A stretch of 64,000 bases of DNA from Gammaproteobacteria bacterium (GCA_024277755.1 JAJRUN010000052.1:4499-68498), one strand, 5' to 3'. Positions 38,135 to 57,717 are shown, numbered from the stretch's first letter. Numbers and translations are program-made. Notes: generated by a model from the letters alone, not told the origin.

Positions 38135-38630
38135 GTTCACTCATGCCTAAATAGTACTGATAATATTTAATTGCCACCACAGGCTGCTGTAAATAAAGGT
38201 CATACAAAACAGCCAGATTCAAAACCGGATCAGAATAGCCAGCATCCTTATCAACGGCTTGAAGATAAGCTGACTCCGCATCCTTAAAACGCCCCACAGA
38301 ACGATAAAAAATGGCGGCAGCATTATAAATTTTTGCACTTTCTGGCTGCAATTGAATTGCCTCATCAAAGGCAGCCGCCGCTTGTTCTGTCAAACCCTGG
38401 CGCTGATACAACAAGCCAAGATTGGCATACGGACCAGCGAGCCCAGGGTAGTCCAGAGTCATTTTTAAAAACTGCTCAATCGCCGTATCATCCTGACCAG
38501 CCTGCATAACAGCCAGTGAAAGCCGGTAATCATCTTCGGCCACAGCACTCTGGTGCTGCTTAGGTATAGCAGTACAGGCAGCCAAGATCAGAATCAGCAA
38601 TAAACATAAAATTCGCTTAATGCAAATCAT
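38079..38630 (-). CDS. TPR-repeat lipoprotein (small)
   Basis: Likely start [19 protein letters not shown] (lipobox LAAC); TPR-like helices. Overlaps the 3' end of nadB convergently. Last gene of a 7-gene minus-strand operon. Confidence 0.55.
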
Positions 38631-41415: not shown

Positions 41416-43295
41416 TGACCGTCCTCATCAATCTTCAGATTAATATCGTAAATATGCGCGACTGAGAGCAGTGCTTGAGAACGATATATTTCAATTTTTT
41501 CTTTAACTACAACCAGCTCATCAACAAGCATGGAATGCAAATAAGCATCATACTGTTGCAGTAAAGAATCAACCTGATCCGCTGCTGTTTTCAGCTGCTG
41601 GGCGACAGTCGCCAACCGCTGCCTATGGCCATCGTAGTTCTGCGGCAGGGACTTTATGATTTCTTTTATATTTCTTTTATATTGATCAGCGTGACTGTTT
41701 TTCTTTTCTAACTCAGACAGATTATTTTTTATATTTCTAAGTCGAATTTTATAACGGGTCATCAAATCCCACTTTAACAACCCAGCCAGCAGACGATTTT
41801 TATGCTGCAGATCCGCCATTCGACCAAGCAGTTCTGCAGGTTTTAGTTTTCCTTCGAAATTTTCAAGGCTATATGTAATCCGCTCATTTACACGACGAAA
41901 CTGATGCAAGTTTTTCAGCTCAGTAGAATCAGCAAGCGCCAGGGCGTCCTCATCCATTTCTATCACCGAAATTCTGGCAGAAAACACCTGAATGGCCTTA
42001 CTGTGATTCTGCTCTGACAACTGTTTAAGCCTGTCCATGGCCCTTGGCTTAAGTTCGGAATTGGCCGAAACTTTCACATCAACAATATCATCAAAGACAT
42101 GAATGCTTGTCAGCCATTTACCCAGGTTTTTTTTAATAAACAGTAAATCCCGATAATTTTTCAGGCTCTCCTGAAATTTATGACTAGAGATAAATTCCAG
42201 AATATATGGGCTCTGCAATACCCCCTCCAACACATCATGCTGCCAGTACCAACCGATCTCATCGTCAGAATCAAGTTCGACCATAGCCAAAATCAATTCA
42301 GAAAAATCTGTTATTTCAAGCTGCTGATCAATCGAATTCAACTGCTGATGATACACATCAATGGCCTTTTTATATTCAGCCAACGAGTCCGAATAGTTCC
42401 CGGTTTGATATAACAAATATGGTTTGGCCAGATAGGCTTCAAGTATATTGACATCAATAGGCTCACGATCTGCCAGTTCAGACCAGGCCGTATTGGCAAT
42501 GGCAAACTCATTGATACCGAATGCCGACCAGCCTAGCCCTAACAAGGCTGGATTTGAAAATCGGCCATGCAATTCAATCTGGCCAAAATACTGACTAGCC
42601 AGCTCAAACTGTTGGTTTTTCAGGTGCAGGTTTGCTAACAACAAATTGACCCTATCAATCAAAGCTGCAGACTCCGCATCTTGCCTCGGCACTGCCGCAA
42701 CCTTATTCAGCAGCGTTATGGCTAATGCCTGATCACCCTGTTTGAGAAGTGAAATGGCTAGATTTGAACGGGCATAAACAGAGTTTTTATTTCCTTTGAT
42801 CTGTTTTTCTAAAAACTCAATGGCTTGCTCAACCTTGTTAATCTTCATCAAGCTAAGCGCCGTCAAGGTCAGGCGTTCATCTTCAAGCTTTCCAGGCAAT
42901 GGTAAAGTTATTTTTTCAAGATGATCATAGGCTAACTGATAATAGCCTCGCTGAAATTGAATCTTCGCCAGATAAAACCAGGCACGATCTCGCGACTGCT
43001 TATCAACCGCGGTCTCAAGAACACGATTGAATATCTGTTCTGCATTTCGCTGCAGGCCATATCCCAGATATAAGCTGCCAAGCAAGGCCTTAGCCTCAAG
43101 AGCATCAACCGCCAACGTGCCTTGGCTCAGTCCCTTTTCAAGTTGAATAATGGCGCTAAAGAACTTTTGCTGGTTGAAATTAAACAGCACCTCGCCATAA
43201 AAAGGGCTGTTGACTCGTTGAACATCTGCCTTAATCGGAGTAATGAATAAACAGAATAACGTCAGCAGCAATACAAAAAACTGAATAACACCCAT
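41412..43295 (-). CDS. secreted TPR-repeat / coiled-coil protein (627 aa)
   Basis: Signal peptide; N-terminal TPR repeats; C-terminal long coiled-coil-like region (K/E/L-rich). Confidence 0.55.
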   Translation of the reverse strand: MGVIQFFVLLLTLFCLFITPIKADVQRVNSPFYGEVLFNFNQQKFFSAIIQLEKGLSQGTLAVDALEAKALLGSLYLGYGLQRNAEQIFNRVLETAVDKQSRDRAWFYLAKIQFQRGYYQLAYDHLEKITLPLPGKLEDERLTLTALSLMKINKVEQAIEFLEKQIKGNKNSVYARSNLAISLLKQGDQALAITLLNKVAAVPRQDAESAALIDRVNLLLANLHLKNQQFELASQYFGQIELHGRFSNPALLGLGWSAFGINEFAIANTAWSELADREPIDVNILEAYLAKPYLLYQTGNYSDSLAEYKKAIDVYHQQLNSIDQQLEITDFSELILAMVELDSDDEIGWYWQHDVLEGVLQSPYILEFISSHKFQESLKNYRDLLFIKKNLGKWLTSIHVFDDIVDVKVSANSELKPRAMDRLKQLSEQNHSKAIQVFSARISVIEMDEDALALADSTELKNLHQFRRVNERITYSLENFEGKLKPAELLGRMADLQHKNRLLAGLLKWDLMTRYKIRLRNIKNNLSELEKKNSHADQYKRNIKEIIKSLPQNYDGHRQRLATVAQQLKTAADQVDSLLQQYDAYLHSMLVDELVVVKEKIEIYRSQALLSVAHIYDINLKIDEDGQ

Positions 43296-43301
43296 GCCCC
43301 A

Positions 43302-43844
43302 TCATTCCCACTCTTTAACTAGAAACTTGGGCTGGTTTTTTTCTTGTGACTCTGAAATTTTCAGTTCAATGTATTTCGGATCAAATGTTTTTACAAAGAT
43401 ATAACTCGCTCCACGGCGATAGTCCCGACCATTGGGGCCTGTACCGGTAAAAATCACCACCACTTCATGCTCACCCTTTTTAAGGTTCTCAACATGAAGT
43501 TTCTGTACACCTCCTTTACTCAAGGCTTTGACCTCCCTGTCTGTATAGAGATAATTGCTCACAACTTTGCCATCGAGCGTCAATTTAATTGAATCCAGTT
43601 TGAAATAAGTATCACCTTCCATCGAAAGAAAAAAGAAGGTTTGCGTATTAACAGGAAACAGCAGCTCTTCTTCAAGGATAAACAGTTCTCGATTGATGGA
43701 AATAACGTCCTTTTTCAGGGCTTCAACTTGTTCATCAAGACTTTGAAATTCTTGTGTATCGGCAGCGGCGCCTATCACTGGCAACACAAGCATGCTCATC
43801 AAGCCAATTCCCAACCACCTCTTTTTATAAAACCAACTCATCAC
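43302..43844 (-). CDS. small secreted protein of unknown function (180 aa)
   Basis: Signal peptide MMSWFYKKRWLGIGLMSMLVLPVIGAAA; no recognisable family. Operonic with flanking genes (gaps 7-10 nt). Confidence 0.45.
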   Translation of the reverse strand: MMSWFYKKRWLGIGLMSMLVLPVIGAAADTQEFQSLDEQVEALKKDVISINRELFILEEELLFPVNTQTFFFLSMEGDTYFKLDSIKLTLDGKVVSNYLYTDREVKALSKGGVQKLHVENLKKGEHEVVVIFTGTGPNGRDYRRGASYIFVKTFDPKYIELKISESQEKNQPKFLVKEWE

Positions 43845-43853
43845 CAGAACTTC

Positions 43854-45440
43854 CTAAATCGTGCCATTAACTATCGGGGCAAAGGCGGTCAAACTATCCA
43901 GCATAGTGCTATTACCCAATCCATGGTTTGAAAATTGTGTTGCAAAACTACCCTGTTCACCATGCAGAGCCATGTAATTCAACGCGATGGTTTCAACAAG
44001 CAGATTGACATTATTGGCCGCCGGGCTTGAGGCCGTTTCTACCGAGGCGTCTGAACGAAAATAACCGATTTGCTGATGCCGCGCCTGCTGATCAGCATTG
44101 GCTCCGAGCAAGGAGGGTCGGCCACCTGGATTATAAACCAGAAAAAACGATGCGGCGGTGGATGAGTTATCCCCGGTCCAGACACCTTTTCCCCGCCCTT
44201 CAACTGAGTCATCAATCGTACCATTGCTCGCCACAGAACCATCACTGAAAACGTAAATCATCAATGGCATGCCAAGCCGTGCGGCATATTCAAGGCAGGC
44301 ACCAATACAACGACCGGCACGAAGATCACGTATTTCACCAACTGAGCGATTACCGGTATGGTAATCATAACCGCCCATGGTAATAGTGCCCGCACCTGCA
44401 AAACCGTTAACTACCAGTTTCATTACTGCAGCAGTTTTACGAAACTCGGCATCGCTATCCAGTTCAGCCTGCGAAAATATAGCACCAATAATATTGGGAT
44501 CAATATTCGGATTGAGTGCCGCCGGATCACCATAGCGATCCACCAGATCAGCCGCTTTAACGTAACCACAGTTGATCATATCTTTCAGCACAGCATCAGC
44601 AGTTATCTTGCTATCGACTCGCCCCAGTTTTTTAGCACTGATACGCTGAATTGATTCCAGCACCGCCACAGCATCATCCTGACTCAGCAAGCCAACCAGT
44701 TTTCCGGTATCAACCAGCCCCGTCACATCGCTGGGACGATCTATTTTGGTCGGCCGCACCGCACTGTTAATCATTGCCGCAGGTGCAACTGAGTTACCGC
44801 CAGAGTCAGAGCTGCGCGAACCAATCAGTGTCAACAATTCACCATCGGCTCCAGCCCTGTTAATGGCGTACATGGGGTTATGCGGATTATTGCCCGTATC
44901 ATTATCAGAGCGTGCCGGGATCACTGCACCATTAACACCGGCATGGGTCGACACTGACGTTCTCTCCAAAATTCCGCGCAAGAAAGCGCTGTCAGAGTGA
45001 AACGCCAAACCAAGATCGGTATTAATAAAATCGCGTGTACCGCTGTCTGCATTGGCGATGAATGGCGCCATGTCACCCGGCAGACCAAGCTTGTTGTAAC
45101 CCGCCGTAGAAAGAAAATCGAGCTGCCCTCCTTGTTGTCCCACCAGCACATTTGAACCACTGATGTTTGCGCCACCCGCCAGATCAAAACAGATAAACGG
45201 GATTTTTCCTGCCCCCTGAGCAGCAATGCCGCAACTCCCCTTCAAGGTCTCAAGATCAGCCGACAAGGCCGCCTGGGCTGTGCGTGGATTAGCAAACAAG
45301 CTGAAAATTGTCGGCCCCATGGCAAGCCCCAGCCCCGCGGTCAAACCTTGGGCAAGAAAGTCACGTCGTGTAACCGGCCGTTTGTGATTAGCGTGCAACA
45401 GTGGTGCATCAGGTGAAAGTAATCTGGATTTTCTCGACAT
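43854..45440 (-). CDS. TAT-exported DUF1501-like protein (sulfatase/alkaline-phosphatase-superfamily-like partner of PSCyt/PSD proteins)
   Basis: 528 aa; twin-arginine signal VTRRDFLAQGLTAGLGLAMG...AQA. Size and position immediately downstream of a multi-CXXCH PSCyt-like protein are typical of DUF1501. Confidence 0.55.
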   Translation of the reverse strand: MSRKSRLLSPDAPLLHANHKRPVTRRDFLAQGLTAGLGLAMGPTIFSLFANPRTAQAALSADLETLKGSCGIAAQGAGKIPFICFDLAGGANISGSNVLVGQQGGQLDFLSTAGYNKLGLPGDMAPFIANADSGTRDFINTDLGLAFHSDSAFLRGILERTSVSTHAGVNGAVIPARSDNDTGNNPHNPMYAINRAGADGELLTLIGSRSSDSGGNSVAPAAMINSAVRPTKIDRPSDVTGLVDTGKLVGLLSQDDAVAVLESIQRISAKKLGRVDSKITADAVLKDMINCGYVKAADLVDRYGDPAALNPNIDPNIIGAIFSQAELDSDAEFRKTAAVMKLVVNGFAGAGTITMGGYDYHTGNRSVGEIRDLRAGRCIGACLEYAARLGMPLMIYVFSDGSVASNGTIDDSVEGRGKGVWTGDNSSTAASFFLVYNPGGRPSLLGANADQQARHQQIGYFRSDASVETASSPAANNVNLLVETIALNYMALHGEQGSFATQFSNHGLGNSTMLDSLTAFAPIVNGTI

Positions 45441-45454
45441 TATCTTCTCACCCT

Positions 45455-47959
45455 CTACTGAATCAACATCACAGCACTACCCAGCATGGCAGCACAGCTT
45501 GCTTTAACCACCACCTCAGTACGACCCTCAGCACAATTACCACCACAGGCAGTCAGTTTTGTGATTAAAGCATCGAGTTCAGATGTCATATCCGCAACCA
45601 GTGGCTGGCTGTTCAAACCGTTACCGGCAATATTATTCAACAACGGCATAATCACCTTACTTCTGCCGCTGGTATCGAAGGCTACATTGACCCCGGCACT
45701 GAAATCAAAACCTGGAAAATAACTGGCACGCAGACCAGCATCATTAACCAGGGCATTACAGTATTCTATCGCCAGTTGCGAAATCGCTACCTGATGCGCA
45801 GAAAGAAATCCATCAATCGATTCAACCGTCGGCAACTGCTGTTTAACGGTTTCGTAGGTGGTCTGAACATCCGTCTGTGTCGTCGCAATGCCGGTCACAG
45901 CAGACATAGTGGCATTAATCTCAGAAAAGATGCGCAGACCAATATCAGCTTTAGCCTCACTGCTTGCTGATGGCGCCGGCTGTAACGGTTGCGACTCGAC
46001 ATAGACATTGCTTTTGCCAGCCAGCGTCTCAAAACTAAGAAAAAACTCATCCGCCGCAATTCCCTTTTCCAGCGGAATGATCGTCCCCAGCTCAGACAGC
46101 AGCTGTGCCTTGGCATTGAACTGGTCACTTTGAACAAACGAACCATTGCTAATGGTCGTATTCAAATTGGCATAGGCCTGACCAACCGCCGACTCTTTAC
46201 CGTTAATGCCAATACGCAAGCCAGCAATATTAAAACTGCCGGGTTCTACCCCAGTATCCAGACTGATAAACATGGGCCGACTAAACAGATAACTGTAACT
46301 ATCAAACTGACTCACTTCAAACAGAACATAACTTTCAGACACATCAACAACATGACCAACACTGAACAACAGAAAAAACTTTTCGCCCACACCAGCCTTA
46401 AAGTTCTTTTGAATCTGCGCCAAACTGAGGGCACGATTATGCACCGCTACCAGCCGCAGCTTACCCTGCCATGGGTGATCATTCGTGACCTCATTGGCCA
46501 GAATAAAAGCAAAAGTTTCATCCCAGTCGTTCAGGTTTCCCGGCTGCTGATCATCCAGGTCATCGGTAAAGACACCATTAACAAAGATACTGCGACCATT
46601 AACCGGATCATAGGTAATCACCACATGCTGTTCAGTGGCCTGCAAGTCTTCATCAGCATCAGCACTGGACAGAGCCGGTTCACCATTGGCATCAGTGCTG
46701 CTGCTACGATTTAAAAAATCATAGTTATATAAAGTCTGACCCAAGGTAAAGTTTCTGTCATTTGTCCCAGCTGAATAACTGATAATACGTGCAGGGCCTT
46801 CCTGATTGACATTGGCTGGCACCATCCAGGCCTCTATCGAGTATTCACCCGAGGCCTTGATAAAATCACTGAGTTTTTTACTGTCGCTAGTGGTGCCCTG
46901 AGCCTTGCTATTGACAAAATCAACCCCCCAACCACCCACCCATTTGTAATCAACACCTTCAGTACCCGATAACTGCAAATGCAAGGAAGGCGAGATACCG
47001 CTAACATCATAGATGGTGTTACCACTCCCCTGCTTAAATTCATACAGGGCAATGACATTCGCTTCATGACGACTGCCACCACTGGCGATACTGCCATCAG
47101 CAAGGGTTAAAGCTTTACTCAATACCAATTGTGGATCAACCTGCGTCAGTGCAATACCATTGGTAAAGTCATTGACGGCCTGTTCAATCTCGCTGGCATT
47201 GGCCTGGCAGTCGTTCCAGCAATTATGAAATTCATTACGCAAACGAACCACCAACCTGGAATTGGCCGGTGTGTCCAGATCTAACTTATAGCTGGTTTTA
47301 AGTGCATCATAGGCTGCCTCAACATCACTGCTTGAAAAATAAGGAGCCTGCGGAATCTGCGCTGACTCGGCATGACAATCGGCACAGTATTGCGTTAGTA
47401 AAGGATAAACCGTGGTTGAAAATAAACTGCTATCCGCAGGAAAACTTTTACTGTCACCGGCATCTTTGATCTGTGGTGCCAGCAGCACAATCTGTTTGCC
47501 AAGGCTGTCGCCAGCCCCCCCCAACCAGTTTTCAATATAGGCCGTCATAATCACAGCGCAGGCATTGCTGCTTGTCTCCCAGCAATTATGCCCGCCGGCC
47601 ACCTTGCTCACCAATCTTGAATTTGCCGGCACATCTAAATCAACAACACTAATCGCATCGCTATAGGCCAGATTAATATCATCACTGCGAACAAAGGTCG
47701 GCGATTGACCATTGCCGCCATGACAGTTGCCACACTTGGCCAGCAGATTGTCCCAAAGATTGGTTTTGAAACTTTGCACATCAGTGGTTGCCGGCTCTGG
47801 GCCGCTATAATTTCTAAGGCTGGTGTTTTCCGTCGCAACACCGGGTTCCAGCGGCACGTTATCACAAGCCATCAATAACAAACCAAACCACACAAACAGC
47901 AATGAGCGTATCAATTTATTCATCTTAATCGCCCTTGCAGTAGTCTGCGGTTTCGGCAA
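45455..47959 (-). CDS. secreted multidomain lipoprotein: two tandem CXXCH (planctomycete-cytochrome-C-like) domains + LamG/ConA-like domain + C-terminal domain
   Basis: Likely start MNKLIRSLLFVWFGLLLMAC (lipobox). Two about 110-aa repeats, each with CXXCH (CGNCH, CADCH), PANSRLV and HNCW motifs, then a LamG-like segment (EAWMVPANVNQEGPARIISYSAG...FVNGV). The DUF1501 gene follows. Confidence 0.55.
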   Translation of the reverse strand: MPKPQTTARAIKMNKLIRSLLFVWFGLLLMACDNVPLEPGVATENTSLRNYSGPEPATTDVQSFKTNLWDNLLAKCGNCHGGNGQSPTFVRSDDINLAYSDAISVVDLDVPANSRLVSKVAGGHNCWETSSNACAVIMTAYIENWLGGAGDSLGKQIVLLAPQIKDAGDSKSFPADSSLFSTTVYPLLTQYCADCHAESAQIPQAPYFSSSDVEAAYDALKTSYKLDLDTPANSRLVVRLRNEFHNCWNDCQANASEIEQAVNDFTNGIALTQVDPQLVLSKALTLADGSIASGGSRHEANVIALYEFKQGSGNTIYDVSGISPSLHLQLSGTEGVDYKWVGGWGVDFVNSKAQGTTSDSKKLSDFIKASGEYSIEAWMVPANVNQEGPARIISYSAGTNDRNFTLGQTLYNYDFLNRSSSTDANGEPALSSADADEDLQATEQHVVITYDPVNGRSIFVNGVFTDDLDDQQPGNLNDWDETFAFILANEVTNDHPWQGKLRLVAVHNRALSLAQIQKNFKAGVGEKFFLLFSVGHVVDVSESYVLFEVSQFDSYSYLFSRPMFISLDTGVEPGSFNIAGLRIGINGKESAVGQAYANLNTTISNGSFVQSDQFNAKAQLLSELGTIIPLEKGIAADEFFLSFETLAGKSNVYVESQPLQPAPSASSEAKADIGLRIFSEINATMSAVTGIATTQTDVQTTYETVKQQLPTVESIDGFLSAHQVAISQLAIEYCNALVNDAGLRASYFPGFDFSAGVNVAFDTSGRSKVIMPLLNNIAGNGLNSQPLVADMTSELDALITKLTACGGNCAEGRTEVVVKASCAAMLGSAVMLIQ

Positions 47960-49130
47960 ACACCTGTTTCAGATTGTAGTTACTGGCTTTAAACGAGCTA
48001 ACCGTGGCCTCGAACTGGGGCAAATCCGTATTAACAGGTTCACGCAGACAGACTGCCTTGAACACCTTTTTTACCTGACAACTGGCAAAGGCCTCAGAGT
48101 TAGCCAATTCAACGCCCATTGACTTGGCACCGCTGCCACTGGCCGCCAGACCTTGAGACTGAGTATCCCAACCCAATACAGCATTCGGACCATTACGCCA
48201 GTAGTTATCCCAACGATCATCAGGCGTGACGTAACCATATTTAAAGTTGTTAGCATTGATATGGTATTTTTTCTTTACTCGCGTCCCCGTATCAGGATCA
48301 ATCACACCAACATCGTTGTAGCTTAAGCGACCATTCTCAGCATCAGGATCCGCTTCACTGTCATATTCAAAGTTGTAATAGGCATAGGCCTGGGTCAATG
48401 GGTCCATACCGGCATGGCAACCAAGACAGGCATTGATAAAGAGACGGCTGTCACCCCCAGGACTGCGGGAAACATCCTGACGAACCCGGTCTGCCGCACG
48501 GGTAGCATCCTTGATCTGTTCAAGGTCGGTGCAAAGATGATTGAGAATAGTAAAGCGAAACATGGCACGGTTAGTGCCATCGATAAAAAAGGCCTTAGCC
48601 GCCGCACGTGTGGAAATCACCCCAGCAGTGGCATTCGCTGTTAAACCTGTTACCGATGATTGAGCCTTCTGCACCAAACCATTCGCTAGATTGACACCGT
48701 TTTTTTCCATGGCTTCATAGTGATCATTATTGGTATTTGAATATGCAGGCAGAGCCAGACTGTTATCACCAACATAAATCAAGTCGGCAGACAGTATCTG
48801 GCGAAAATCGATATCATCGCGCACCATACCGATGACTGTGGCACTGTAATCATTCAAAGGGGCAAATACAGTCTGCGCTTCATTGGTCCAGGGGGTAACA
48901 AGGTTTTTCAAGGTCACACTATAAAAGGCAGGGTGCTGCATGGCCTTATAGGCAGCCGAAATTGCATCACCTGCGTTAATATCTGCCGCCATACTTACTA
49001 GCGTTTCCTCATCAGCAGGCACCCCGGCAACTCGATCATGAATCCGTTTTGCCTGGTCACGGCTATCCGCCAGTGCGGACAAACTGATTGCAAAAGAAGC
49101 CATCAAAAAATATTTTAAATACGACGTCAT
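47925..49130 (-). CDS. secreted protein with single CXXCH motif (PSCyt-like)
   Basis: 401 aa, signal peptide; FINACLGCHAGMDPL heme-c-binding-type motif. First gene of the minus-strand operon. Confidence 0.5.
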   Translation of the reverse strand: MTSYLKYFLMASFAISLSALADSRDQAKRIHDRVAGVPADEETLVSMAADINAGDAISAAYKAMQHPAFYSVTLKNLVTPWTNEAQTVFAPLNDYSATVIGMVRDDIDFRQILSADLIYVGDNSLALPAYSNTNNDHYEAMEKNGVNLANGLVQKAQSSVTGLTANATAGVISTRAAAKAFFIDGTNRAMFRFTILNHLCTDLEQIKDATRAADRVRQDVSRSPGGDSRLFINACLGCHAGMDPLTQAYAYYNFEYDSEADPDAENGRLSYNDVGVIDPDTGTRVKKKYHINANNFKYGYVTPDDRWDNYWRNGPNAVLGWDTQSQGLAASGSGAKSMGVELANSEAFASCQVKKVFKAVCLREPVNTDLPQFEATVSSFKASNYNLKQVFAETADYCKGD

Positions 49131-49369
49131 TTATTTGTAACAACTAAGTTTAAAAAGATATTTACATCCATCATTCCTGCGTATTCTATACCAAAGACTC
49201 GCCCTAATGTGTTACACAAATCACATAAAAAACATCGACCATAAACCGTTCATTATTCGTCGCCAATTAGCGACAAATAAATTAAATGTGAAACTGTTCA
49301 AACATTACTGACGCCATAACTTATAATATTCATCTTTACGGGCAATGCAGTATTGATGCAGGACTAACA

Positions 49370-52033
49370 ATGAGTTTCAGAATTTACCGAAACGAAAAAA
49401 ATATAGCAGTGATTTTTACACTTTGCTTAAGCAGCCTGCTGTACGGCTGTCTTGACCAGGCACAACAGCAGGATGATCCCATTGCTGTACTGCTTGATTA
49501 CCCTATTGCCTACGTCAAACGTCCCCTGCTATTGAACAGCCAAGGTGAACCAGCACAAATTGACCTGCTCGACCTGCAAGACTTCAACCCCGGTGCCGAC
49601 CTCTTTCTGCGTGATCGTGCCTCACCCAGCGCACCGGAACAAAATATTACCTTTCGTTTTACTAATGGCCAAGGCGATGTAAAAGACCTCGAAAGCAGCG
49701 CCGATGGCAGCAAACTTATATTTTCAATGCGTGCAGCTGAGATCGAAAATGCCGATGAGGACGAACAACCCAGCTGGAATATTTGGCAATACGAAATTGC
49801 AACAGACACACTGACACGCATCATTGGTTCTGACATCACTGCCGAGGCTGGCGACGATATTTCGCCCGCTTATCTGCCTGATGGAAAAATTGTTTTTTCA
49901 TCCACACGCCAACGCAATGCAGGCGCTATTCTGCTTGATGAAGGCAAGCCACGCTTCACTGCCGAAACAGAGAGTCGTAATGGCCCCGCCTTTGTATTGC
50001 ACGTTATGGATGAAGATGGAGCCAACATAAAACAAATTTCATTTAACCAGAGCCATGACATTGACCCAACCGTGTCGCCAAACGGCGACATCATATTCAG
50101 CCGTTGGGACAACATGGGCAGCCGTAACAATATCAACCTTTATAAAATCAATGCCGACGGTACCGGACTGGAAATTTTGTATGGGGCACACAGCCATAAC
50201 AACGGCAGTGGTAATTCAAGCGTTCAATTGACACAAGCGCGTGAAATGACAGATGGCAAGATTGCCGTTCGCCTGACCCCCTTCCGTGGCACAAATGGCA
50301 GCGGCAACTTTGTTGCCATTGATATCGACAACTATCTCGATGCTGAGTTTACAAAACACAGCAACACCGCCAACACCGCAGGCTCAGGACAAACAAACCT
50401 GACAGGGCTAAATCTTTTTAGCGACAACAGCATCAGTCGCGATGGCTATGTCAGCGCCTTTTACCCGCTTTGGGATAACAGCAATCGCGCCCTGATTAGC
50501 TGGAGCCCTTGTCGTCTTATTGAGACAAATACCAATCAAACAGAAATAATTGTCCCCTGCACCAGCGAACGGCTGGCTGCTGCCGAGCCAGTCGCCGCCG
50601 CCCCCTTGTATGGCATCTACATCTACGATATGAACAACAACACCCAGCTACCCATTGTTACACCAGAGGAAGGCATCATCATTCATGACGTAGTGGCCAC
50701 CGATGAACGGCTGAGTTATACCCTGCTCAGCACCACCCTGCTTAACAGTGGCTTTGCCGATGAAGGTGTGGGCGTGCTTGATATTCGCAGTGTCTATGAT
50801 ATTGATGGTTTTGACACCACCACCAACAGCATCACCAGTATGGCTGATCCGGCACAAACAATGGCAGCACAACGCCCGGCCCGGTTTCTGCGCATCATCA
50901 AGGCCGTGCCCTTACCTGACCGTGACAGTCTCGACTTTGACAACAGCGCCTTTGGCCGCAGCAATCAATTGATGCGCGAAATCATTGGCTATGCGCCGGT
51001 TGAACCCGATGGTTCGGTCAAAGTAAAAGTTCCGGCCAATATGCCACTAGCCATCAGCATTGTAGATGCGAATGGTCGCCGCATCAGCGCCCGACATCAA
51101 AACTGGTTGCAGCTGCGTGCCGGTGAAAACAAACAATGCAATGGCTGCCATGACCACAACAGCGGTATTCCTCACGGCAATAGCGAAGGCCCCAACAGTG
51201 TGTATGGCGGTGCAGCACAAACCGGCAGCGCCTTTAAAAATACAGATAATTCTATAAGAGCTGAAGCCAACGAAACCATGGCCCAAACACTGGCACGCAT
51301 CAGCTGTGCGTCTGACTGTGCCTACCTGACACCAAGCGTCAATCCCCGCTTTATCGACAACTGGACTGACAGCAATATCCAGGCCAAGGATGAACCATTT
51401 TCATACCTCTATTCAGATATGACCACCACAGCGCCAACCACGGCAGCCTGCCAAACCAGCTGGACCCCCCTATGCCGTATCATCATCAATTACGAAACTC
51501 ACATCCACCCGCTTTGGTCCGCACCGCGCAGCATTTTAAATACGAACACTCTGCTCGATGAAGACCGCAGATGCAGCAGCTGCCACACCAACCAGGATCT
51601 TGCAGGCAATCCAATGCTGCCTGATGCCCAGCTTGATTTAAGTGATGGCCCATCAACTGACGAACCCGATCACTTCAAGTCTTACCGCGAATTATTGTTT
51701 GCAGACAACCTGCAAGAGTTGGTCAACAACAGCCTGCAAGACGTTATAATTCAAGACACTGACAATCAAGGCAATCTATTATTTGAAACTGACACAGAAG
51801 GAAACCTGATCCTGGGGCCGGATAACAACCCTGTACCGGTGATGGTAGCGGTGCCTGCAAACGGCCCCGCCATGTCAGCCAATGGCGCCAACAGCAGTTA
51901 TTTTTTCGATCGCTTTGATGCTGGCGGCAGTCACGCTGGCTGGCTCAGCAATGCCGAGCTACGCCTGCTATCGGAATGGCTGGATATCGGCGGCCAGTAT
52001 TACAATAACCCGTTTGACATTCCGCAGCCCTGA
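49370..52033 (+). CDS. lipoprotein with PD40/TolB-like beta-propeller repeats and two C-terminal CXXCH motifs (887 aa)
   Basis: Signal plus lipobox LLYGC; repeated (L/S)P(D/N)G(K/D)I(V/I)F(S)S(T)R-type PD40 motifs; CNGCH and CSSCH in the C-terminal third. Confidence 0.55.
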   Translation: MSFRIYRNEKNIAVIFTLCLSSLLYGCLDQAQQQDDPIAVLLDYPIAYVKRPLLLNSQGEPAQIDLLDLQDFNPGADLFLRDRASPSAPEQNITFRFTNGQGDVKDLESSADGSKLIFSMRAAEIENADEDEQPSWNIWQYEIATDTLTRIIGSDITAEAGDDISPAYLPDGKIVFSSTRQRNAGAILLDEGKPRFTAETESRNGPAFVLHVMDEDGANIKQISFNQSHDIDPTVSPNGDIIFSRWDNMGSRNNINLYKINADGTGLEILYGAHSHNNGSGNSSVQLTQAREMTDGKIAVRLTPFRGTNGSGNFVAIDIDNYLDAEFTKHSNTANTAGSGQTNLTGLNLFSDNSISRDGYVSAFYPLWDNSNRALISWSPCRLIETNTNQTEIIVPCTSERLAAAEPVAAAPLYGIYIYDMNNNTQLPIVTPEEGIIIHDVVATDERLSYTLLSTTLLNSGFADEGVGVLDIRSVYDIDGFDTTTNSITSMADPAQTMAAQRPARFLRIIKAVPLPDRDSLDFDNSAFGRSNQLMREIIGYAPVEPDGSVKVKVPANMPLAISIVDANGRRISARHQNWLQLRAGENKQCNGCHDHNSGIPHGNSEGPNSVYGGAAQTGSAFKNTDNSIRAEANETMAQTLARISCASDCAYLTPSVNPRFIDNWTDSNIQAKDEPFSYLYSDMTTTAPTTAACQTSWTPLCRIIINYETHIHPLWSAPRSILNTNTLLDEDRRCSSCHTNQDLAGNPMLPDAQLDLSDGPSTDEPDHFKSYRELLFADNLQELVNNSLQDVIIQDTDNQGNLLFETDTEGNLILGPDNNPVPVMVAVPANGPAMSANGANSSYFFDRFDAGGSHAGWLSNAELRLLSEWLDIGGQYYNNPFDIPQP

Positions 52034-52035
52034 CC

Positions 52036-52766
52036 ATGCCATTCATCCTCATCATGCTGCTATCACTCTGCACTGGTTATGCCCAGGCAGAAGACCGCTA
52101 TCGCAAGGCTCAAATAACAGAACCCTATATTGAATTGCACACCGGCCCTGGCCGTGGCTACCCGGTGTTTCATGTGATCGACCGTGGCGAATGGATTGAA
52201 TCCAGCAACGCAGAACCGACTGGTTCAAGGTCGTTGCCAGCAACGGCATCACAGGCTGGACCCATCAAGATCAACTACTACAGACACTAAACCCGCAAGG
52301 CCAACAGACCCGCTTTGAACAAATCGACCAGAATCAATTCAGCAAACGCAAAACGGAAGCCGGTGTACTCGGCGGTGATATGGATGGCGCTCAAACCATA
52401 ACGCTTTACGCTGCTTACCGGTTCACCCAAAACCTGTCCAGCGAGTTTTCATTTATGCAAGCAGTGGGCAACTACTCCAACAACCTGATCACCAATATCA
52501 ACCTGCTCAACCAGCCCTTTCCAAACTGGCGAATATCGCCATATTTTGCCCTAGGCATGGGCAATATCAAGACCACACCAAGAGCAACCCTGGTACTGGC
52601 CAAAGACCGCAGCGATCTGCTGGCCCATTTCGGCATCGGTGCATACGGCTACATATCCAGCCGCTTTGCCCTGCGCGCCGAATATAATCGCTACGTGGTC
52701 TTTTCCAGCAATGATGACAATGAGGACATAAACGAATGGAAAATCGGACTGGTCACTTTTTTCTAG
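52036..52766 (+). CDS. SH3b-domain + outer-membrane beta-barrel protein, apparently split by a 1-nt frameshift near 52200
   Basis: ORF 52036-52290 gives signal peptide + SH3b start (YIELHTGPGRGYPVFHVIDRGEWIE). The SH3b end (TDWFKVVASNGITGWTHQDQL) continues in the -1 frame from about 52200 with no stop, into ORF 52380-52766, an OMP barrel ending in GLVTFF. Confidence 0.5.
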
Positions 52767-53383
52767 CCTCAGTGCTGCTCATCGTCAGCCTGATGCCCGG
52801 CACAGCCAGGGCCGAAACAGACACGCCTATTCAAGTGATCAATCCCAGTCTCGAACGGGAGCCTGTCAAACCTGCCCGTATCGACACGGAAAATTTCGAG
52901 CTAGGCGTCTATGTCGGCACACTCAGCATTGAGGACTTTGGCACCAGCACTGTCACCGGGGCGCGGCTGGCCTATCATTTCAGTGAAGACTTTTTTGCCG
53001 AAGCCGTTTATGGTCAGGCCACTGCCGGCGACACCAGCTTCGAACGTCTTAGCGGCTCGGTACAACTGCTCACCGATGCAGAACGCGATCTAAGCTATTA
53101 CAATATCTCCTTTGGTTTTAATATCCTGCCCGGCGAAGCCTTTGTGGGCAGTGGCCGCGCCTTTTACACCGCACTCTATCTGGTAGCAGGCACCGGCAGC
53201 ACCAAATTCGGTGGTGATAAGCGTCACACCCTAAACATGGGGTTTGGCTATCGTTTCATTTTTAATGACTGGCTTGCCGGACACCTGGATGCCCGTGACC
53301 ATATCTTCGACATCGACCTGCTGGGCAGCAACAAGACCAGCCACAACCTTGAAGTCAGCACCGGTCTGACACTGTTTTTCTAA
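52736..53383 (+). CDS. outer-membrane beta-barrel protein (OmpA-N/OmpW-like small barrel)
   Basis: 215 aa; signal peptide ...MPGTARA; alternating amphipathic beta-strands; C-terminal GLTLFF. Confidence 0.55.
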   Translation: MENRTGHFFLASVLLIVSLMPGTARAETDTPIQVINPSLEREPVKPARIDTENFELGVYVGTLSIEDFGTSTVTGARLAYHFSEDFFAEAVYGQATAGDTSFERLSGSVQLLTDAERDLSYYNISFGFNILPGEAFVGSGRAFYTALYLVAGTGSTKFGGDKRHTLNMGFGYRFIFNDWLAGHLDARDHIFDIDLLGSNKTSHNLEVSTGLTLFF

Positions 53384-53397
53384 TCCTGGAGTTAGAC

Positions 53398-53901
53398 ATG
53401 AATTTATTTCGCACCCTTGGCATTACATTGTTATCCCTGACGCTTGGACTGGCAGCACTGCCCAGTCAGGCCGAAGACAAAATGCCCGCCCCGGACTTCA
53501 CCCTGAAAAGCCATAGCGGCAAAAACATCAAACTCAGTGAATTACGCGGTGATGTGGTGATGATCAATTTTTGGGCCTCGTGGTGTGGCCCCTGCTTGCT
53601 GGAAATGCCTGCCCTGGAACAAATTCATCAACGCTACAAAGACCTTGGTTTTACCCTGTTAGGCGTTAATGTTGAGCAAGATATCAGCGAGGCAAAGGCC
53701 TATTTGAAAAAGGTCAATGTCAGCTTTCCGATTTTGTTTGATATCACCAATCAGGTCAGCGACGAATATGAAATCAGTGGTATGCCGACCACCTACCTGG
53801 TTGACCGTGACGGTAATCTGCGAAAACTTTACATTGGCTACCAACCCGGTACCTCAGAAGAGGTTTACATGCGAGAAATCAAAACCTTGCTAAAAGAATA
53901 A
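53398..53901 (+). CDS. periplasmic TlpA/ResA/DsbE-like thiol:disulfide oxidoreductase (redoxin)
   Basis: 167 aa; signal peptide; WASWCGPC active site; redoxin-fold layout. Confidence 0.8.
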   Translation: MNLFRTLGITLLSLTLGLAALPSQAEDKMPAPDFTLKSHSGKNIKLSELRGDVVMINFWASWCGPCLLEMPALEQIHQRYKDLGFTLLGVNVEQDISEAKAYLKKVNVSFPILFDITNQVSDEYEISGMPTTYLVDRDGNLRKLYIGYQPGTSEEVYMREIKTLLKE

Positions 53902-53902
53902 A

Positions 53903-54121
53903 ATGGCCAGAACCATCGCCACAACCTGCCTATTGCTAGTGCTTGGTGGCTGCTCAATTCAGCCCTGGGTCAAGCCTTATGAACGGGCCAGGTTAGCCGA
54001 CCCCATCATGAGTTTTAATCGTGACCCTATTTCATCAAGTTATATCAATCATGTCTATCAAGCACGTGAAGGTGCCCGCGGTGCAGAAAACGGACAAGGT
54101 GGTGGCTGTGGCTGTAATTAG
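53903..54121 (+). CDS. DUF4266-family small lipoprotein
   Basis: 72 aa; lipobox LVLGGC; P-W-x-(K/R)-P-x-E-R motif; diagnostic C-terminus GQGGGCGCN. Confidence 0.7.
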   Translation: MARTIATTCLLLVLGGCSIQPWVKPYERARLADPIMSFNRDPISSSYINHVYQAREGARGAENGQGGGCGCN

Positions 54122-55277
54122 AATCAACAACAAACATCTCAGTAAAATTGTTGCCGCTACCATCGCACTTGGCATCACCTTTCCATTGATGGCCGCTATT
54201 CTGCCCGCTGATCGTTTCGATGCCCTGGTGCACTCCTATAATGGCGGCGGCATGGAGATTAATGGCCCCTCACTATTGATTCGCAAAATGCTTGGCACCA
54301 GCACCTCGGTGTCGGCCAATTATTATATCGACTCCATCAGCAGCGCATCGATTGATGTCATCACCTCCGCCAGCCCCTATAAAGAAGAACGCAAGGAGCA
54401 CTCGGTCGGTATCGAATATTTGCATGATAAAAGCATCATGAGCTTTAACTACAGCAACAGTAAAGAAAATGACTACCAGGCAAAAACCTACAGCGTAAGC
54501 ATATCGCAGGATTTTTTTGGCGACCTGACCACCCTGTCCATGGGTTATGCCCGTGGCGATGACATAGTGCAACGCATCGTCAACACCCCCACGGGAAAAA
54601 CCCTTGACCTGAACTTTGGCAGCAAAAATACAGACCGGCAAAACTTCCGTCTCGGACTGTCACAAATACTCAGCAAACAAATGATACTGGGGCTGAACTA
54701 CGAGTTAATCACCGACAAGGGTTTTCTCAACAACCCCTATCGTCAGGTTCGTTTTGCCGATGGCAGTAAGGCCTTTGAAATCTATCCCAACACTCGCTCA
54801 AGCAATGCAGTATCAGCACAACTTAAATACTACCTCCCCTACCGCGCCGCACTCACGGGCGAGTTAGGGGTTTTTAATGATACTTGGTCCATTAACGCCA
54901 GCCACCTGAAATTAGCCTACAGTCACCCCCTTAAAAACGATTGGCTCATCGACCTGCGCTATCGTTATTATGACCAAAGTCGTGCCAGCTTTTACAGCGA
55001 CCTCTTTAGCGCGCCAGGGGCACAAACCTATATGGCACGAGATAAAGAACTCAGCAGTTTCAACAATCAAACCATTGGCTTTAGTGTCAGTTATGATCTG
55101 TCTCAACATGGCTGGAAACGGGTAGACAAAGGCAGCATCAACCTTGCCTTTGATCACATGATATTTGATTATCAGGACTTCAGGGATGCCTCGGTCGAGG
55201 GTGGCGAGATTGGCGCAGAACCGCTCTACAGCTTTTCCAGCAACGTGATACAGATGTACCTATCCATCTGGTATTGA
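54104..55277 (+). CDS. DUF3570-family protein (predicted outer-membrane beta-barrel), partner of DUF4266
   Basis: About 390 aa. Probable GTG start overlapping the DUF4266 stop gives a signal peptide (...KHLSKIVAATIALGITFPLMAA); ORF track shows the longer 54021 start. Beta-strand-rich; C-terminal aromatic residues. Confidence 0.55.
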
Positions 55278-55380
55278 GTTTTCCTGCCTGGCTGGCGGCA
55301 ACCTGAAGAATTAATACCTTACAATTAACCCATGATCTTCACTGTTAAATAAATTCCAGCCTCAGCCGTTAACGGTTAAC

Positions 55381-56181
55381 ATGAATTCAATATCGATCAA
55401 TGAACTTTCAATTTTGATTGTCGAACCGTCAATGACGTCGACACGATTCATTGTAAATCAGCTGAAAAACCTTGATGTTAGAAATATCGAAAGCTGCCGC
55501 AACGGCGCCGAGGCCCTGGCCAGCATGCGCAGAAGTCCGCCTGATCTGGTGGCAAGTTCAATGTATCTGCCAGACATGACCGCAACCGAGCTGATTAAAA
55601 CCATGCGCACTGACCCTGAGTTGGAAGAGGTCTCATTCATGCTCATTTCCACTGAAACCTCCTTCGCCAGACTGGACCCTATTCGTCAGGCTGGCATTGT
55701 TGCCATTTTACCCAAACCCTTTACCAGTGATGACATGCGCAGGGCGCTGGTAGGCACCACAAGGTTTATAGACACAGACAGGGCTGAAATTGAAGAGATG
55801 GGCTTGGATGAATTAAAGGTTCTGGTGGTTGATGACAGTGCCATGGCCCGCAAGCACATAGGTCGTGTACTAAGAAATCTGGGGATTGAAAACATCACCG
55901 AGGCAGAAAATGGCCGTGAGGCTGTCGCCATCCTTGAAAGAAGTTTTTTCGACATGGTCTTCACCGATTACAATATGCCGGAAATGGATGGCGAAGAACT
56001 GACCCGTCATATCCGTGAAAACAGCATGCAACGCAGTGTTCCAGTGTTGATGGTCACGAGTGAAGAAAATGGCAGCCGCTTGGCGGCGGTGCAACAGGCT
56101 GGTGTCTCTGGCATCTGCGACAAACCCTTTGAAACAGACACCGTTTTGAAAATGATTCAGGACATTCGCGCAACGGCATAA
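55381..56181 (+). CDS. response regulator with two receiver domains (N-terminal degenerate pseudo-receiver + canonical REC), no output domain
   Basis: REC2: KVLVVDDSAMAR...MVFTDYNMPEMDG...K. REC1 has ILIVEPS instead of the DD pocket and Ser at the phospho-Asp position (DLVASSMYLPDM). Confidence 0.8.
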   Translation: MNSISINELSILIVEPSMTSTRFIVNQLKNLDVRNIESCRNGAEALASMRRSPPDLVASSMYLPDMTATELIKTMRTDPELEEVSFMLISTETSFARLDPIRQAGIVAILPKPFTSDDMRRALVGTTRFIDTDRAEIEEMGLDELKVLVVDDSAMARKHIGRVLRNLGIENITEAENGREAVAILERSFFDMVFTDYNMPEMDGEELTRHIRENSMQRSVPVLMVTSEENGSRLAAVQQAGVSGICDKPFETDTVLKMIQDIRATA

Positions 56182-56253: not shown

Positions 56254-57717
56254 TTAGGCAATCTTAGACATCACCTGCTTTACCCGCTCGGCATAGTCTG
56301 CATCAGCTTGGGCAAACTGTGCCAGCATCCTTTCCTGGGCAGACGCCGATGCATGTACCAGACCACCAGCAATCGTGTCTGCCAGCGCATCCTTTTGCCC
56401 ATCACTCATCAAACGGTACAGATCACCAGCCTGACTGTAGTGATCATACTCAGCCGTGTCATGGGGTTTGATCCAGGCATCAGCTTCCACTGGCATGGGC
56501 GGCGCTCCTACTTGCGGTGCTGGTACCGCTGCGCCCTGGTCAGCGCGATCATTGGGATAGAAATTCACCCCACTGCCCTGGTTATTGCCACCACCATGAG
56601 CAGGACACATACCCGCCATTGCGCCGTCACGCTGATAATGATTCACCGGACACTTGGGCGCATTAACCGGAATCTGATTAGCGTTGGCACCAATACGATG
56701 ACGATGGGCATCCTGATAGGCCAGCAAACGCGCTTGCAACATACGATCAGGTGAAGCACCAATCCCCGGCACCAGATTACTTGGGGCAAAGGCGGCCTGC
56801 TCGGTCTCGGCAAAATAGTTGTCAACATTGCGATTCAACTCCATCTGGCCAATTTCAATCAACGGGAAATCACTGTGTGACCAGACCTTGGTCAGATCAA
56901 ACGGGTTGATGCGATAGCTCTTTGCTTCAGCCTCCGTCATAATCTGCACCTTCACCGCCCAGCTGGGGTAGTCGCCCTTATCAATGGCTTCGATCAAATC
57001 CTGCTGCGCACCGAAAGATGGCAAACTCGCCGCCTCGGCATCGCTGACATTCTTGATGCCCTGGTTGGTCTTCAGGTGCCACTTAACCCAAAAACGCTCA
57101 CCCTTGTCATTCCAAAAGCTCAGTGTGTGCGAGCTAAAGCCATGCATGTGGCGGTAAGAAGCCGGAATCCCCCGATCCGACATCAGGATGGTCATCTGAT
57201 GCAGTGAGTTTGGATGGTTGGCCCAAAACTCAAACATGGCGGCAGGATTGGGCAGATTGGTACGCGGGTCTTTCTTCTGCGAATGAACAAAATCAGGGAA
57301 GTTGATCGGGTCATTCAAAAAGAACACCGGCGTGTTGTTGCCCACCAGATCAAAATTGCCCTGCCCGGTATAAAACTTGATGGCAAAACCACGTGGGTCA
57401 CGGGCATAGTCGCTGGAATCCTGACCACCGCCGACAGTGGAAAAACGCACAAACACATCGGTCTGCTGGCCTTCCGTTTGCAGGAACCTGGCAATGGTGT
57501 GTTCGCTCATGTCTTTGCTTGCAGTAAAGGTACCGTACGCACCCGTGCCACGGGCATGCACTACACGCTCTGGAAGCCGCTCACGATTAAAATGAGCCAG
57601 CTTTTCAAACAAATAATGATTATCAAAGGTCAACGGCCCCCGTTCACCCACACTGATACTGTTGTTGTCTTCTGATACCGGGGCACCGCTTGAAGTCGTC
57701 AAGGTAGTCTTGCTCAT
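56254..57717 (-). CDS. katA: monofunctional heme catalase (small-subunit, clade 3)
   Basis: 487 aa; RERIPERVVHARG, FDRERIPERVVHA-like motifs (FNRERLPERVVHARGTGAYG), distal His and proximal Tyr regions. Confidence 0.95.
   Translation of the reverse strand: MSKTTLTTSSGAPVSEDNNSISVGERGPLTFDNHYLFEKLAHFNRERLPERVVHARGTGAYGTFTASKDMSEHTIARFLQTEGQQTDVFVRFSTVGGGQDSSDYARDPRGFAIKFYTGQGNFDLVGNNTPVFFLNDPINFPDFVHSQKKDPRTNLPNPAAMFEFWANHPNSLHQMTILMSDRGIPASYRHMHGFSSHTLSFWNDKGERFWVKWHLKTNQGIKNVSDAEAASLPSFGAQQDLIEAIDKGDYPSWAVKVQIMTEAEAKSYRINPFDLTKVWSHSDFPLIEIGQMELNRNVDNYFAETEQAAFAPSNLVPGIGASPDRMLQARLLAYQDAHRHRIGANANQIPVNAPKCPVNHYQRDGAMAGMCPAHGGGNNQGSGVNFYPNDRADQGAAVPAPQVGAPPMPVEADAWIKPHDTAEYDHYSQAGDLYRLMSDGQKDALADTIAGGLVHASASAQERMLAQFAQADADYAERVKQVMSKIA

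Follow-up and report, generated by a model that had tools for sequence, protein, structure and literature searches.

The gene at positions 49370-52033 on the plus strand of the DNA stretch analysed here (64,000 nucleotides from a Gammaproteobacteria bacterium, GCA_024277755.1 JAJRUN010000052.1:4499-68498, in the following called the window) encodes a protein that we identify with high confidence, in identity as well as architecture, as a diheme lipoprotein resembling the alpha subunit of hydrazine synthase (HZS-alpha). The protein has three parts: a six-blade-like PD40 propeller, a beta-sandwich middle domain with a predicted heme I, and a C-terminal domain with a predicted heme II. It belongs to a divergent gene cluster whose core is essentially invariant, and this neighbourhood is the most informative result of the analysis. 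We moderately favour the view that the protein serves as the heme redox subunit of a conserved envelope system associated with the outer membrane. The gene, its parts and the region upstream of it are as follows, with positions counted from the first letter of the window and lengths given in amino acids (aa).

49131-49369, no strand: AT-rich divergent intergenic region between the two operons, seen in the sequence
49370-52033, plus strand: gene of the HZS-alpha-like diheme lipoprotein, open reading frame (ORF) from ATG 49370 to TGA 52031-52033, 887 aa
49448-49450, plus strand: codon of the lipobox Cys27, predicted lipid attachment site (LLYG-C, conservation)
49499-50704, plus strand: N-terminal beta-propeller with PD40 repeats, about residues 44-445 (Pfam PD40; about 25 beta strands in the AlphaFold2 (AF2) model)
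50939-51154, plus strand: HZS_alpha middle domain (residues 524-595), with the first heme motif at its end (PF18582; the profile aligns with 5C2V_A 501-561)
51137-51151, plus strand: first heme-c motif, C590-N-G-C593-H594, equivalent of heme alpha-I (aligned with CSGCH of Kuenenia)
51173-51175, plus strand: His602 in a conserved P-H-G loop past the first motif, candidate extra heme or metal ligand (95% conserved; role inferred only)
51572-51586, plus strand: second heme-c motif, C735-S-S-C738-H739, equivalent of heme alpha-II (collinear, weak alignment with CAMCH of Kuenenia)
51932-51934, plus strand: His855, which aligns with alpha-His772 (index 745 in 5C2V_A) and is predicted to be the distal ligand of heme II

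The original prediction for this gene had described a lipoprotein in which TolB-like PD40 propeller repeats are combined with two c-type heme motifs, a layout of the kind found in specialised redox enzymes. The analysis supports this description. The peptides it quoted are all present, LPDGKIVFSSTR at residues 169-180, SPNGDIIFSRWD at 236-247 and ADGTGLEILYG at 262-272 in the N-terminal half, and CNGCHDHNSGIPHG at 590-603 and RRCSSCHTNQD at 733-743 towards the C-terminus. The PD40 repeats are recognised by Pfam (E=9.3e-10, in two stretches). The lipoprotein assignment is borne out by an N-terminal signal ending in LLYG-C27, with Cys27 conserved in the homologues: it is invariant in 44 of them and 98.5% conserved in 134 divergent representatives, each taken from a separate 50%-identity cluster, and a lipobox-like motif is found in 69 of 79 orthologues. 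For the two CXXCH motifs the expectation from composition is 0.0027 per protein, and none of 20,000 shuffled sequences gave two. The motifs are therefore not a product of chance, a conclusion for which their conservation is the stronger argument. The gene is also, as had been proposed, the first of a plus-strand operon, separated from a minus-strand operon by the 239-bp divergent intergenic region; the next ORF starts at 52036, two bases past the stop, in agreement with the 3 nt originally given. Promoter and terminator scans of 49000-55500 gave results no better than those for shuffled sequences.

Several comparisons lead to HZS-alpha. The Pfam family HZS_alpha (PF18582) matches residues 524-595 with 59.3 bits against a gathering threshold of 26.6 (E=5.5e-16), the same domain is precomputed for all 120 homologues listed, and PF26549 is precomputed on some of them. 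When the PDB was searched by sequence, the only real match was 5C2V_A (phmmer E=2.5e-7, family profile E=2.6e-14), and it consists of three collinear pieces, one in the propeller, one running through the middle domain as far as the CXXCH, and one in the C-terminal helix; within the first of these, residues 218-320 align with 5C2V_A 216-319. A structure comparison, which the original prediction had proposed as a check, leads to the same protein. The AF2 model, built on 44 homologues, has a mean pLDDT (predicted local distance difference test) of 83.3 and a pTM (predicted template modelling score) of 0.80, and with Foldseek the hydrazine synthase alpha subunit 5C2V_A is its sole full-length match in the PDB (E=7e-26, TM-score 0.52/0.59, 16% identity). 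The other Foldseek matches, from E~1e-10, cover the propeller only and are TolB, S9 peptidases and lactonases. The combination of propeller and heme sites, which had been read as a fusion of two parts, is on this alignment evidence the established HZS-alpha architecture and not a new fusion.

The residues were mapped onto Kuenenia HZS-alpha with HMMER alignments to 5C2V_A, where the index equals the Kuenenia numbering minus 27, so that CSGCH lies at 556-560 and its His is numbered 587 in the literature. Among the 134 representatives C590, C593 and H594 of the first motif are conserved to 97-99%, and C735, C738 and H739 of the second to 98.5-100%. It had been pointed out that CXXCH motifs may also lie in folds other than cytochromes, such as zinc-binding ones. 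Here the first motif aligns with the crystallised heme alpha-I motif, and the second lies in a C-terminal domain whose His855, conserved to 95%, aligns with the distal ligand of heme alpha-II, so that this possible objection does not refute the reading as heme sites. Heme II is thus predicted to be a bis-His heme of the electron-transfer type. From the first CXXCH onward the consensus reads C-N-G-C-H-x-H-x-S-G-x-P-H-G, and further conserved positions in the same set of sequences are His211 (99%), His576 (94%), Ser275 (94%) and Met637 (at least 93%), together with two probable disulfide pairs, C381/C397 and C694/C702.

The family is large. A word-indexed search gave at least 3,996 matches, and the full-length relatives down to about 50% identity are almost all named 'hypothetical' or 'PD40 domain-containing protein'. 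When the 50%-identity representatives were searched exhaustively, 518 clusters matched at E<=1e-30 and 1,831 at E<=1e-10, and in a collection with one genome per species relatives occur in at least 585 species. The best 80 of these at least 585 are nearly all Gammaproteobacteria and include cultured Marinobacter, Lentisalinibacter, Biformimicrobium and Microbulbifer, Candidatus Thiodiazotropha and Sedimenticola, as well as Kangiellaceae, Woeseiaceae and Steroidobacteraceae; sulfur-oxidising symbionts are among the carriers. No names for the exact proteins of the window were found in public sources.

To our knowledge, hydrazine synthase was long regarded as an enzyme without relatives. The first HZS-alpha homologues outside anammox bacteria were described by Hagglund et al. 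in 2025 (PMC12758564) as clades I-IV, for which a neighbouring gene for a fused beta-gamma homologue was the defining feature; an FG-GAP/CRTAC1 gene and ABC substrate-binding proteins are often close by as well. These distant homologues were described only in anaerobes, beside the beta-gamma-like genes, and their hosts are Planctomycetota, Desulfobacterota and a small number of other groups; heme alpha-II is missing from clades II and III, and His772 from clade I (PMC12758564). The family described here resembles clades I-IV in being a distant version of the HZS-alpha fold outside anammox, and the heme alpha-I pocket of the clades is likewise canonical and their function unassigned. In contrast to them, it keeps the heme alpha-II motif and the His772 equivalent, and instead of beta-gamma, FG-GAP and ABC neighbours it is surrounded by another cluster, which is strictly conserved. 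The main text of PMC12758564 does not deal with Gammaproteobacteria, but its supplementary match tables include a few gammaproteobacterial 'PD40 domain-containing proteins', for instance one from Wenzhouxiangella with 22% identity to Kuenenia HZS-alpha (E=7e-16). The fold family is thus already known, and its domain is flagged by Pfam. In the searchable literature we found no description of a large, lipid-anchored clade of HZS-alpha-like proteins that keeps His772 and lacks beta-gamma, nor of the invariant pairing of such a clade with a DUF3570 module and a cytochrome/Tat operon (Tat, twin-arginine translocation).

A search for orthologues and for the conservation of their neighbourhood had been suggested by the original prediction, which missed the strictly conserved cluster around the gene. 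We searched the proteins of the window against 80 related loci, and a gene was counted only where the contig extends far enough to evaluate it. In the cultured Aliikangiella coralliicola, for which the gene calls are independent, the same ten genes are found in the same order. The plus-strand arm continues downstream of the HZS-alpha-like gene with:

52036-52766, plus strand: gene with an SH3 domain and a small outer-membrane beta-barrel (76/76 evaluable loci)
52736-53383, plus strand: 215-aa outer-membrane beta-barrel protein of the OMP_myx_plus type (NCBIfam TIGR04565, 163.6 bits; 73/73 evaluable loci)
53398-53901, plus strand: secreted TlpA/ResA-like thioredoxin with a WCGPC motif (Pfam AhpC-TSA and Redoxin; 48/71 evaluable loci)
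53903-54121, plus strand: 72-aa DUF4266 lipoprotein ending in a GGGCGCN (CXC) tail (PF14086, E=6e-22, 78.8 bits; 69/70 evaluable loci)
54021-55277, plus strand: DUF3570 protein, likely an outer-membrane barrel (PF12094, 139 bits; 65/65 evaluable loci)

The core of the minus-strand arm consists of three genes:

47925-49130, minus strand: 401-aa secreted monoheme cytochrome c (CLGCH at 235-239 invariant in 16 orthologues; 66/66 evaluable loci)
45455-47959, minus strand: 834-aa diheme cytochrome c lipoprotein with a central LamG domain (CGNCH and CADCH invariant; 60/60 evaluable loci)
43854-45440, minus strand: 528-aa Tat-signal protein of no Pfam family (RRDFLAQGL signal, TAT_signal matches; 57/57 evaluable loci)

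Taken together, the cluster holds five conserved CXXCH sites in three proteins. When the C-terminal heme-II domain was compared with the 834-aa and 401-aa families by hhalign, only the CXXCH pentapeptide was aligned, with probabilities of 4% and 19%, and there is therefore no demonstrable cytochrome module shared between them. Four of the proteins in the cluster are lipoproteins, and the barrels end in an aromatic residue, Tyr or Phe in 68 of 70 DUF3570 orthologues, Phe in 73 of 74 OMP_myx_plus orthologues, and an aromatic residue in 73 of 76 orthologues of the third barrel. A C-terminal aromatic residue is typical of outer-membrane barrels, and the system is therefore likely to be associated with the outer membrane and to face the periplasm.

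The end of the plus-strand operon resembles a known electron-transfer module. The flavinylation of DUF3570 by the periplasmic flavin transferase ApbE has been shown experimentally, and ApbE, DUF3570, a thioredoxin-like protein and DUF4266 (CXC), sometimes with DsbD, have been proposed to form a hybrid thiol/flavin system for extracytosolic electron transfer (Meheust et al. 2021, PMC8238504). The TlpA-like protein, the DUF4266 protein with its CXC tail and the DUF3570 protein correspond to this arrangement. The GGGCGCN tail of DUF4266 is conserved across orthologues, while the matches of the thioredoxin to ResA and TlpA in NCBIfam are below the equivalog cutoffs. HZS_alpha and PD40 partners are not mentioned in PMC8238504, and its supplementary text does not contain the strings PF18582 or PF12094. 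Clustering of all ORFs of the loci revealed a gene for ApbE (PF02424, E=4e-81; a signal peptide is present) within the cluster at about 21 of the 80 loci, where it adjoins the 528-aa gene or DUF3570 (e.g. L045:3276-4391 and L030:3417-4442), and all Marinobacter examples checked carry an ApbE in the cluster. The cluster differs from the described system in its DUF3570 subtype, which mostly has [ST]-S-A-S instead of [ST]-G-A-[ST], and in the lack of a linked DsbD. The wider pattern D-x-x-[ST]-[SGA]-A-[ST] is kept in 69 of 70 orthologues, the window protein has DSISSAS and DVITSAS in tandem, and the counts of the variants over the loci are 43 for SSAS, 19 for TSAS, 6 for SAAS and 3 for SGAS.

We propose that the lipid-anchored cytochrome faces the periplasm as the catalytic or terminal redox subunit of an envelope redox machine. 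A thiol relay, formed by the DUF4266 lipoprotein with its CXC tail and the TlpA-like thioredoxin, would deliver reducing equivalents to the DUF3570 barrel flavinylated by ApbE, and from DUF3570, from the two partner c-type cytochromes or from both these would arrive at heme II and move on to heme I. Heme I, to judge by its counterpart heme alpha-I, would lie where the propeller and the middle domain meet and act on a small periplasmic substrate, and the Tat-exported 528-aa protein may be a second, cofactor-bearing enzyme of the system. Heme alpha-I of Kuenenia is described as unreducible (PMC12607021). With His594 as the predicted ligand in place of Tyr591, heme I should have a far higher potential, and redox cycling is therefore likely. 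That heme I is catalytic is a suggestion by analogy, and we hold it tentatively, as a possibility somewhat short of an even chance. The architecture, the homology, the conservation of the ligands and the gene linkage are supported directly, and it is heme occupancy, the direction of electron flow, the substrate and a physical complex that we infer.

Some of the results weigh against this view. Linkage argues for a shared function; it does not show that the proteins form a physical complex, nor which way electrons flow. ApbE is absent from the 64-kb window (tblastn), though it may be encoded elsewhere in this genome, and from most of the loci, and no DsbD was found near the cluster in the 80 loci. 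The thioredoxin gene is missing from about one third of the loci (it is present in 48 of 71), and the strict motif [ST]GA[ST] is absent from 63 of 70 DUF3570 orthologues and present in 7. Furthermore, the gene with the SH3 domain and the barrel is frameshifted in the window, so that the system may be impaired in this strain, unless the sequence is in error.

The main rival to a catalytic or terminal role, and in our opinion a doubtful one that still has to be taken seriously, is that the protein is an electron carrier only. Both hemes would then be six-coordinate, the propeller would be a docking platform, and the protein would connect the partner cytochromes or flavinylated DUF3570 with the actual catalyst, the 528-aa Tat protein. 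The latter is the most conserved protein of the cluster, with a median identity of 69% as compared to 49% for the HZS-alpha-like protein, and export by Tat suggests an enzyme loaded with its cofactor. Potential additional axial ligands are conserved near heme I (His602 95%, Met637 at least 93%, His576 94%), and the predicted bis-His heme II is like the electron-transfer heme alpha-II (PMC12607021). However, heme alpha-I of the only relative that has been characterised is an open active-site heme (PMC12607021), and a simple carrier would hardly call for a conserved propeller of 400 residues with many invariant positions. Nor is the fold of the 528-aa protein established, as its model has a pLDDT of 55.7 and only non-significant matches. 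More remote is the reading in which CXXCH is structural, as part of a disulfide or zinc site, in a non-redox envelope protein of the TolB or peptidase type. The propeller does resemble those of TolB and S9 peptidases (Foldseek E~1e-9 to 1e-7), and there are weak NCBIfam matches to TolB and Dpp5. We nevertheless regard this as highly unlikely: both motifs keep their His and two Cys in 97-100% of the divergent sequences and align with the covalent-heme motifs of the 5C2V crystal structure, TolB (TIGR02800) reaches 32.3 bits against a cutoff of 343 and superposes on the propeller only (TMq ~0.25), and no peptidase catalytic domain was detected with Pfam or NCBIfam.

Two further readings look to better known systems. 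The cluster could be a gammaproteobacterial version of the planctomycete pairs of a PSCyt protein and a partner enzyme, acting on a surface polymer or glycan, with LamG, SH3 and TPR domains binding the substrate and the hemes supporting its oxidative modification. It is like the PSCyt/PSD pairs in that one operon combines a secreted protein that has a CXXCH and a PSD2-like C-terminus, a protein with cytochrome and LamG domains, and a partner exported by Tat. The weak matches of the 401-aa family to PSD2 (14/16 members) and PSCyt3 (2/16) are recurrent, the LamG of the 834-aa protein lies between cytochrome domains, and the Foldseek matches of the 528-aa model all belong to the alkaline-phosphatase/sulfatase superfamily; PSCyt genes typically adjoin conserved uncharacterised genes and sometimes carry carbohydrate-binding modules (PMC5615132). 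Against this, the PSD2 and PSCyt3 matches are all below the Pfam thresholds, the Foldseek matches are non-significant and come from a low-confidence model, and the genes conserved in the cluster in the 80 loci include no glycoside hydrolase, sulfatase or transporter. The 528-aa partner also matches neither DUF1501 nor DUF1552 in Pfam, and for the PSCyt/PSD pairs no link to DUF3570 and an HZS-alpha-like protein has been described. The reading is an analogy rather than a mechanism, as the PSCyt systems are themselves without an assigned function (PMC5615132), and we think it unlikely.

The other of these two readings is that the protein is a genuine HZS-alpha, or part of a cryptic anammox-like pathway for N-N bond formation in a gammaproteobacterium. 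The order of the domains is shared with HZS-alpha kuste2861 (5C2V chain A) of the anammox Planctomycetota, the three-domain architecture is the same, the heme alpha-I motif, the heme alpha-II motif and the equivalent of alpha-His772, the distal ligand of heme alpha-II, are all kept, and hydrazine_alpha is the top match in NCBIfam. That match, however, amounts to 55.8 bits, whereas the equivalog NF052339 has a cutoff of 800, and the identity to 5C2V_A in the Foldseek comparison is only 16%. In Kuenenia, Tyr591 is the proximal ligand of heme alpha-I, and His587 and Cys303 are diverted to a zinc ion (PMC12758564, PMC12607021). No Tyr is found at 595-603 in the query or the family consensus, where Kuenenia has Tyr591, with an HMMER alignment that ends one residue past the CXXCH, and the position aligned with Cys303 is His274, which is His in 62% of the sequences and otherwise variable, Asn or Arg. 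Without equivalents of Tyr591 and Cys303, heme I is probably a canonical His-ligated heme. Genes for the beta-propeller subunit (beta) and the CCP/MauG-like gamma subunit are absent from the cluster and the 64-kb window (Pfam scans and a CXXCH survey), no beta or gamma gene is conserved across the 80 related loci, and the profiles of the partner cytochromes showed no similarity to CCP, MauG or HZS-gamma when compared with the PDB. Unlike Kuenenia HZS-alpha, a soluble protein of the anammoxosome, the family is lipid-anchored, and the protein here exceeds it in length by about 100 residues and has insertions in its C-terminal domain. In contrast to the HZS system, the family occurs without beta and gamma subunits and its hosts are aerobic or facultative gammaproteobacteria; the carriers include strict aerobes and span at least 585 species. 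An identity as hydrazine synthase is thereby largely refuted, and of all the readings considered we give it the least credence, next to none.

Apart from hydrazine synthase, the design of a periplasmic beta-propeller together with a c-type cytochrome is reminiscent of cytochrome cd1 nitrite reductase and the quinohemoprotein alcohol dehydrogenases. These enzymes hold heme d1 or pyrroloquinoline quinone (PQQ) in an eight-bladed propeller. For our protein there was no match to a d1 or PQQ propeller in Pfam or NCBIfam, and none among the top 50 Foldseek matches in the PDB, and there is no sign of either cofactor.

If heme I were an active site, the protein might belong to a kind of chemistry that has not been recognised before. 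A heme enzyme with the HZS-alpha fold would then carry out small-molecule chemistry at the outer membrane of aerobic or facultative marine Gammaproteobacteria, including chemosynthetic symbionts, and be fed by a quinone-independent relay from thiol to covalent flavin to heme. Substrates may for example be hydroxylamine, NO, another N-oxide or reactive oxygen species. We consider this combination rather unlikely as it stands. Should it be true, it would be the first function of the HZS-alpha fold outside anammox, it would provide the orphan DUF3570 flavinylation system with its first physiological acceptor, and it would give a foothold on the cytochrome/partner pairs of the planctomycete type.

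The relatives described here form a much larger, unanalysed branch of the family. They occur in common Gammaproteobacteria of marine waters and sediments, several of which are cultured and some genetically tractable (Marinobacter), and in the branch both heme sites are retained, the beta-gamma partner has been lost, and the linkage is to other partners. This bears on how the anammox enzyme was assembled from earlier periplasmic heme proteins. The linkage also joins three blocks of genomic dark matter, the HZS_alpha proteins, the module of ApbE, DUF3570, DUF4266 and thioredoxin, and the planctomycete-like cytochromes with their Tat partner. It will be surprising to specialists in anammox and in extracytoplasmic electron transfer, and it can be tested directly in cultured Marinobacter.

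Some of the genes in the cluster need a closer description. The gene following the HZS-alpha-like one is split into ORFs of 84 and 128 aa by an apparent 1-nt deletion near 52199-52201, where the window reads GAA TCC and intact orthologues GAA ATC; it is intact in Marinobacter (279 aa) and in Aliikangiella (259 aa). The frameshift is either a sequencing error or a real pseudogene. OMP_b-brl matches its second half, and the intact orthologues match SH3_3, SH3_4 and OMP_b-brl. The longest ORF for DUF3570, starting with GTG 54021, overlaps the DUF4266 gene, which makes the latter easy to miss. Since the orthologue in Aliikangiella (390 aa) begins past the stop of DUF4266, the true start of DUF3570 is probably ATG 54051 or later.

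On the minus strand, the 401-aa family has sub-threshold matches to PSD2/DUF1585 in the 14 members mentioned (best E=3.1e-5), and the copy in the window reaches 17 bits against PSD2, where the cutoff is 25.8. The start of the 834-aa protein is probably ATG 47923. This protein matches Laminin_G_3 (E=9e-17), and Cytochrome_CBB3-type matches were found in 13 of 16 members. Its N-terminal cytochrome repeats each have an invariant H-N-C-W...C about 45-50 residues past the CXXCH (124-134 and 245-251), which may represent a distal His ligand and a disulfide; the pattern is not described in any of the families matched. The 528-aa family is very large, with at least 8,000 matches, and among 42 members scanned at E<=5 no Pfam or NCBIfam family was found beyond the Tat signal. 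The protein has no sequence relative in the PDB, and the best of the non-significant Foldseek matches to its poor AF2 model has E=0.036, so that they can serve as a lead only. Several NCBI records, including those of tubeworm endosymbionts, carry the label 'general secretion pathway protein GspF' for homologues of this protein. The label has no support from profiles and looks like a propagated mis-annotation.

The minus-strand operon continues with an accessory module:

43302-43844, minus strand: 180-aa secreted protein, first gene of the accessory module (no family; 37/80 loci, on either side of the core)
38079-43295, minus strand: three TPR proteins, of 627 aa, a 932-aa lipoprotein and a 187-aa lipoprotein (Pfam TPR; 37, 26 and 10 of 80 loci, on either side of the core)

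The module moves as a block, lying upstream on the minus strand here and downstream on the plus strand in Marinobacter, and in Aliikangiella it is reduced to one gene of 185 aa in the equivalent position. The cluster is flanked by a response regulator that has two receiver domains but lacks an output domain (55381-56181, plus strand) and a monofunctional catalase (56254-57717, minus strand). These two were considered as hints to the function and rejected, as they are not conserved neighbours in the 80 loci. Beyond them lie an ORF of 1,522 aa (58356-62924, minus strand) and a response-regulator-like ORF of 345 aa (62952-63989, minus strand), which are not conserved with the cluster and have weak partial matches in only 2 of the 80 loci.

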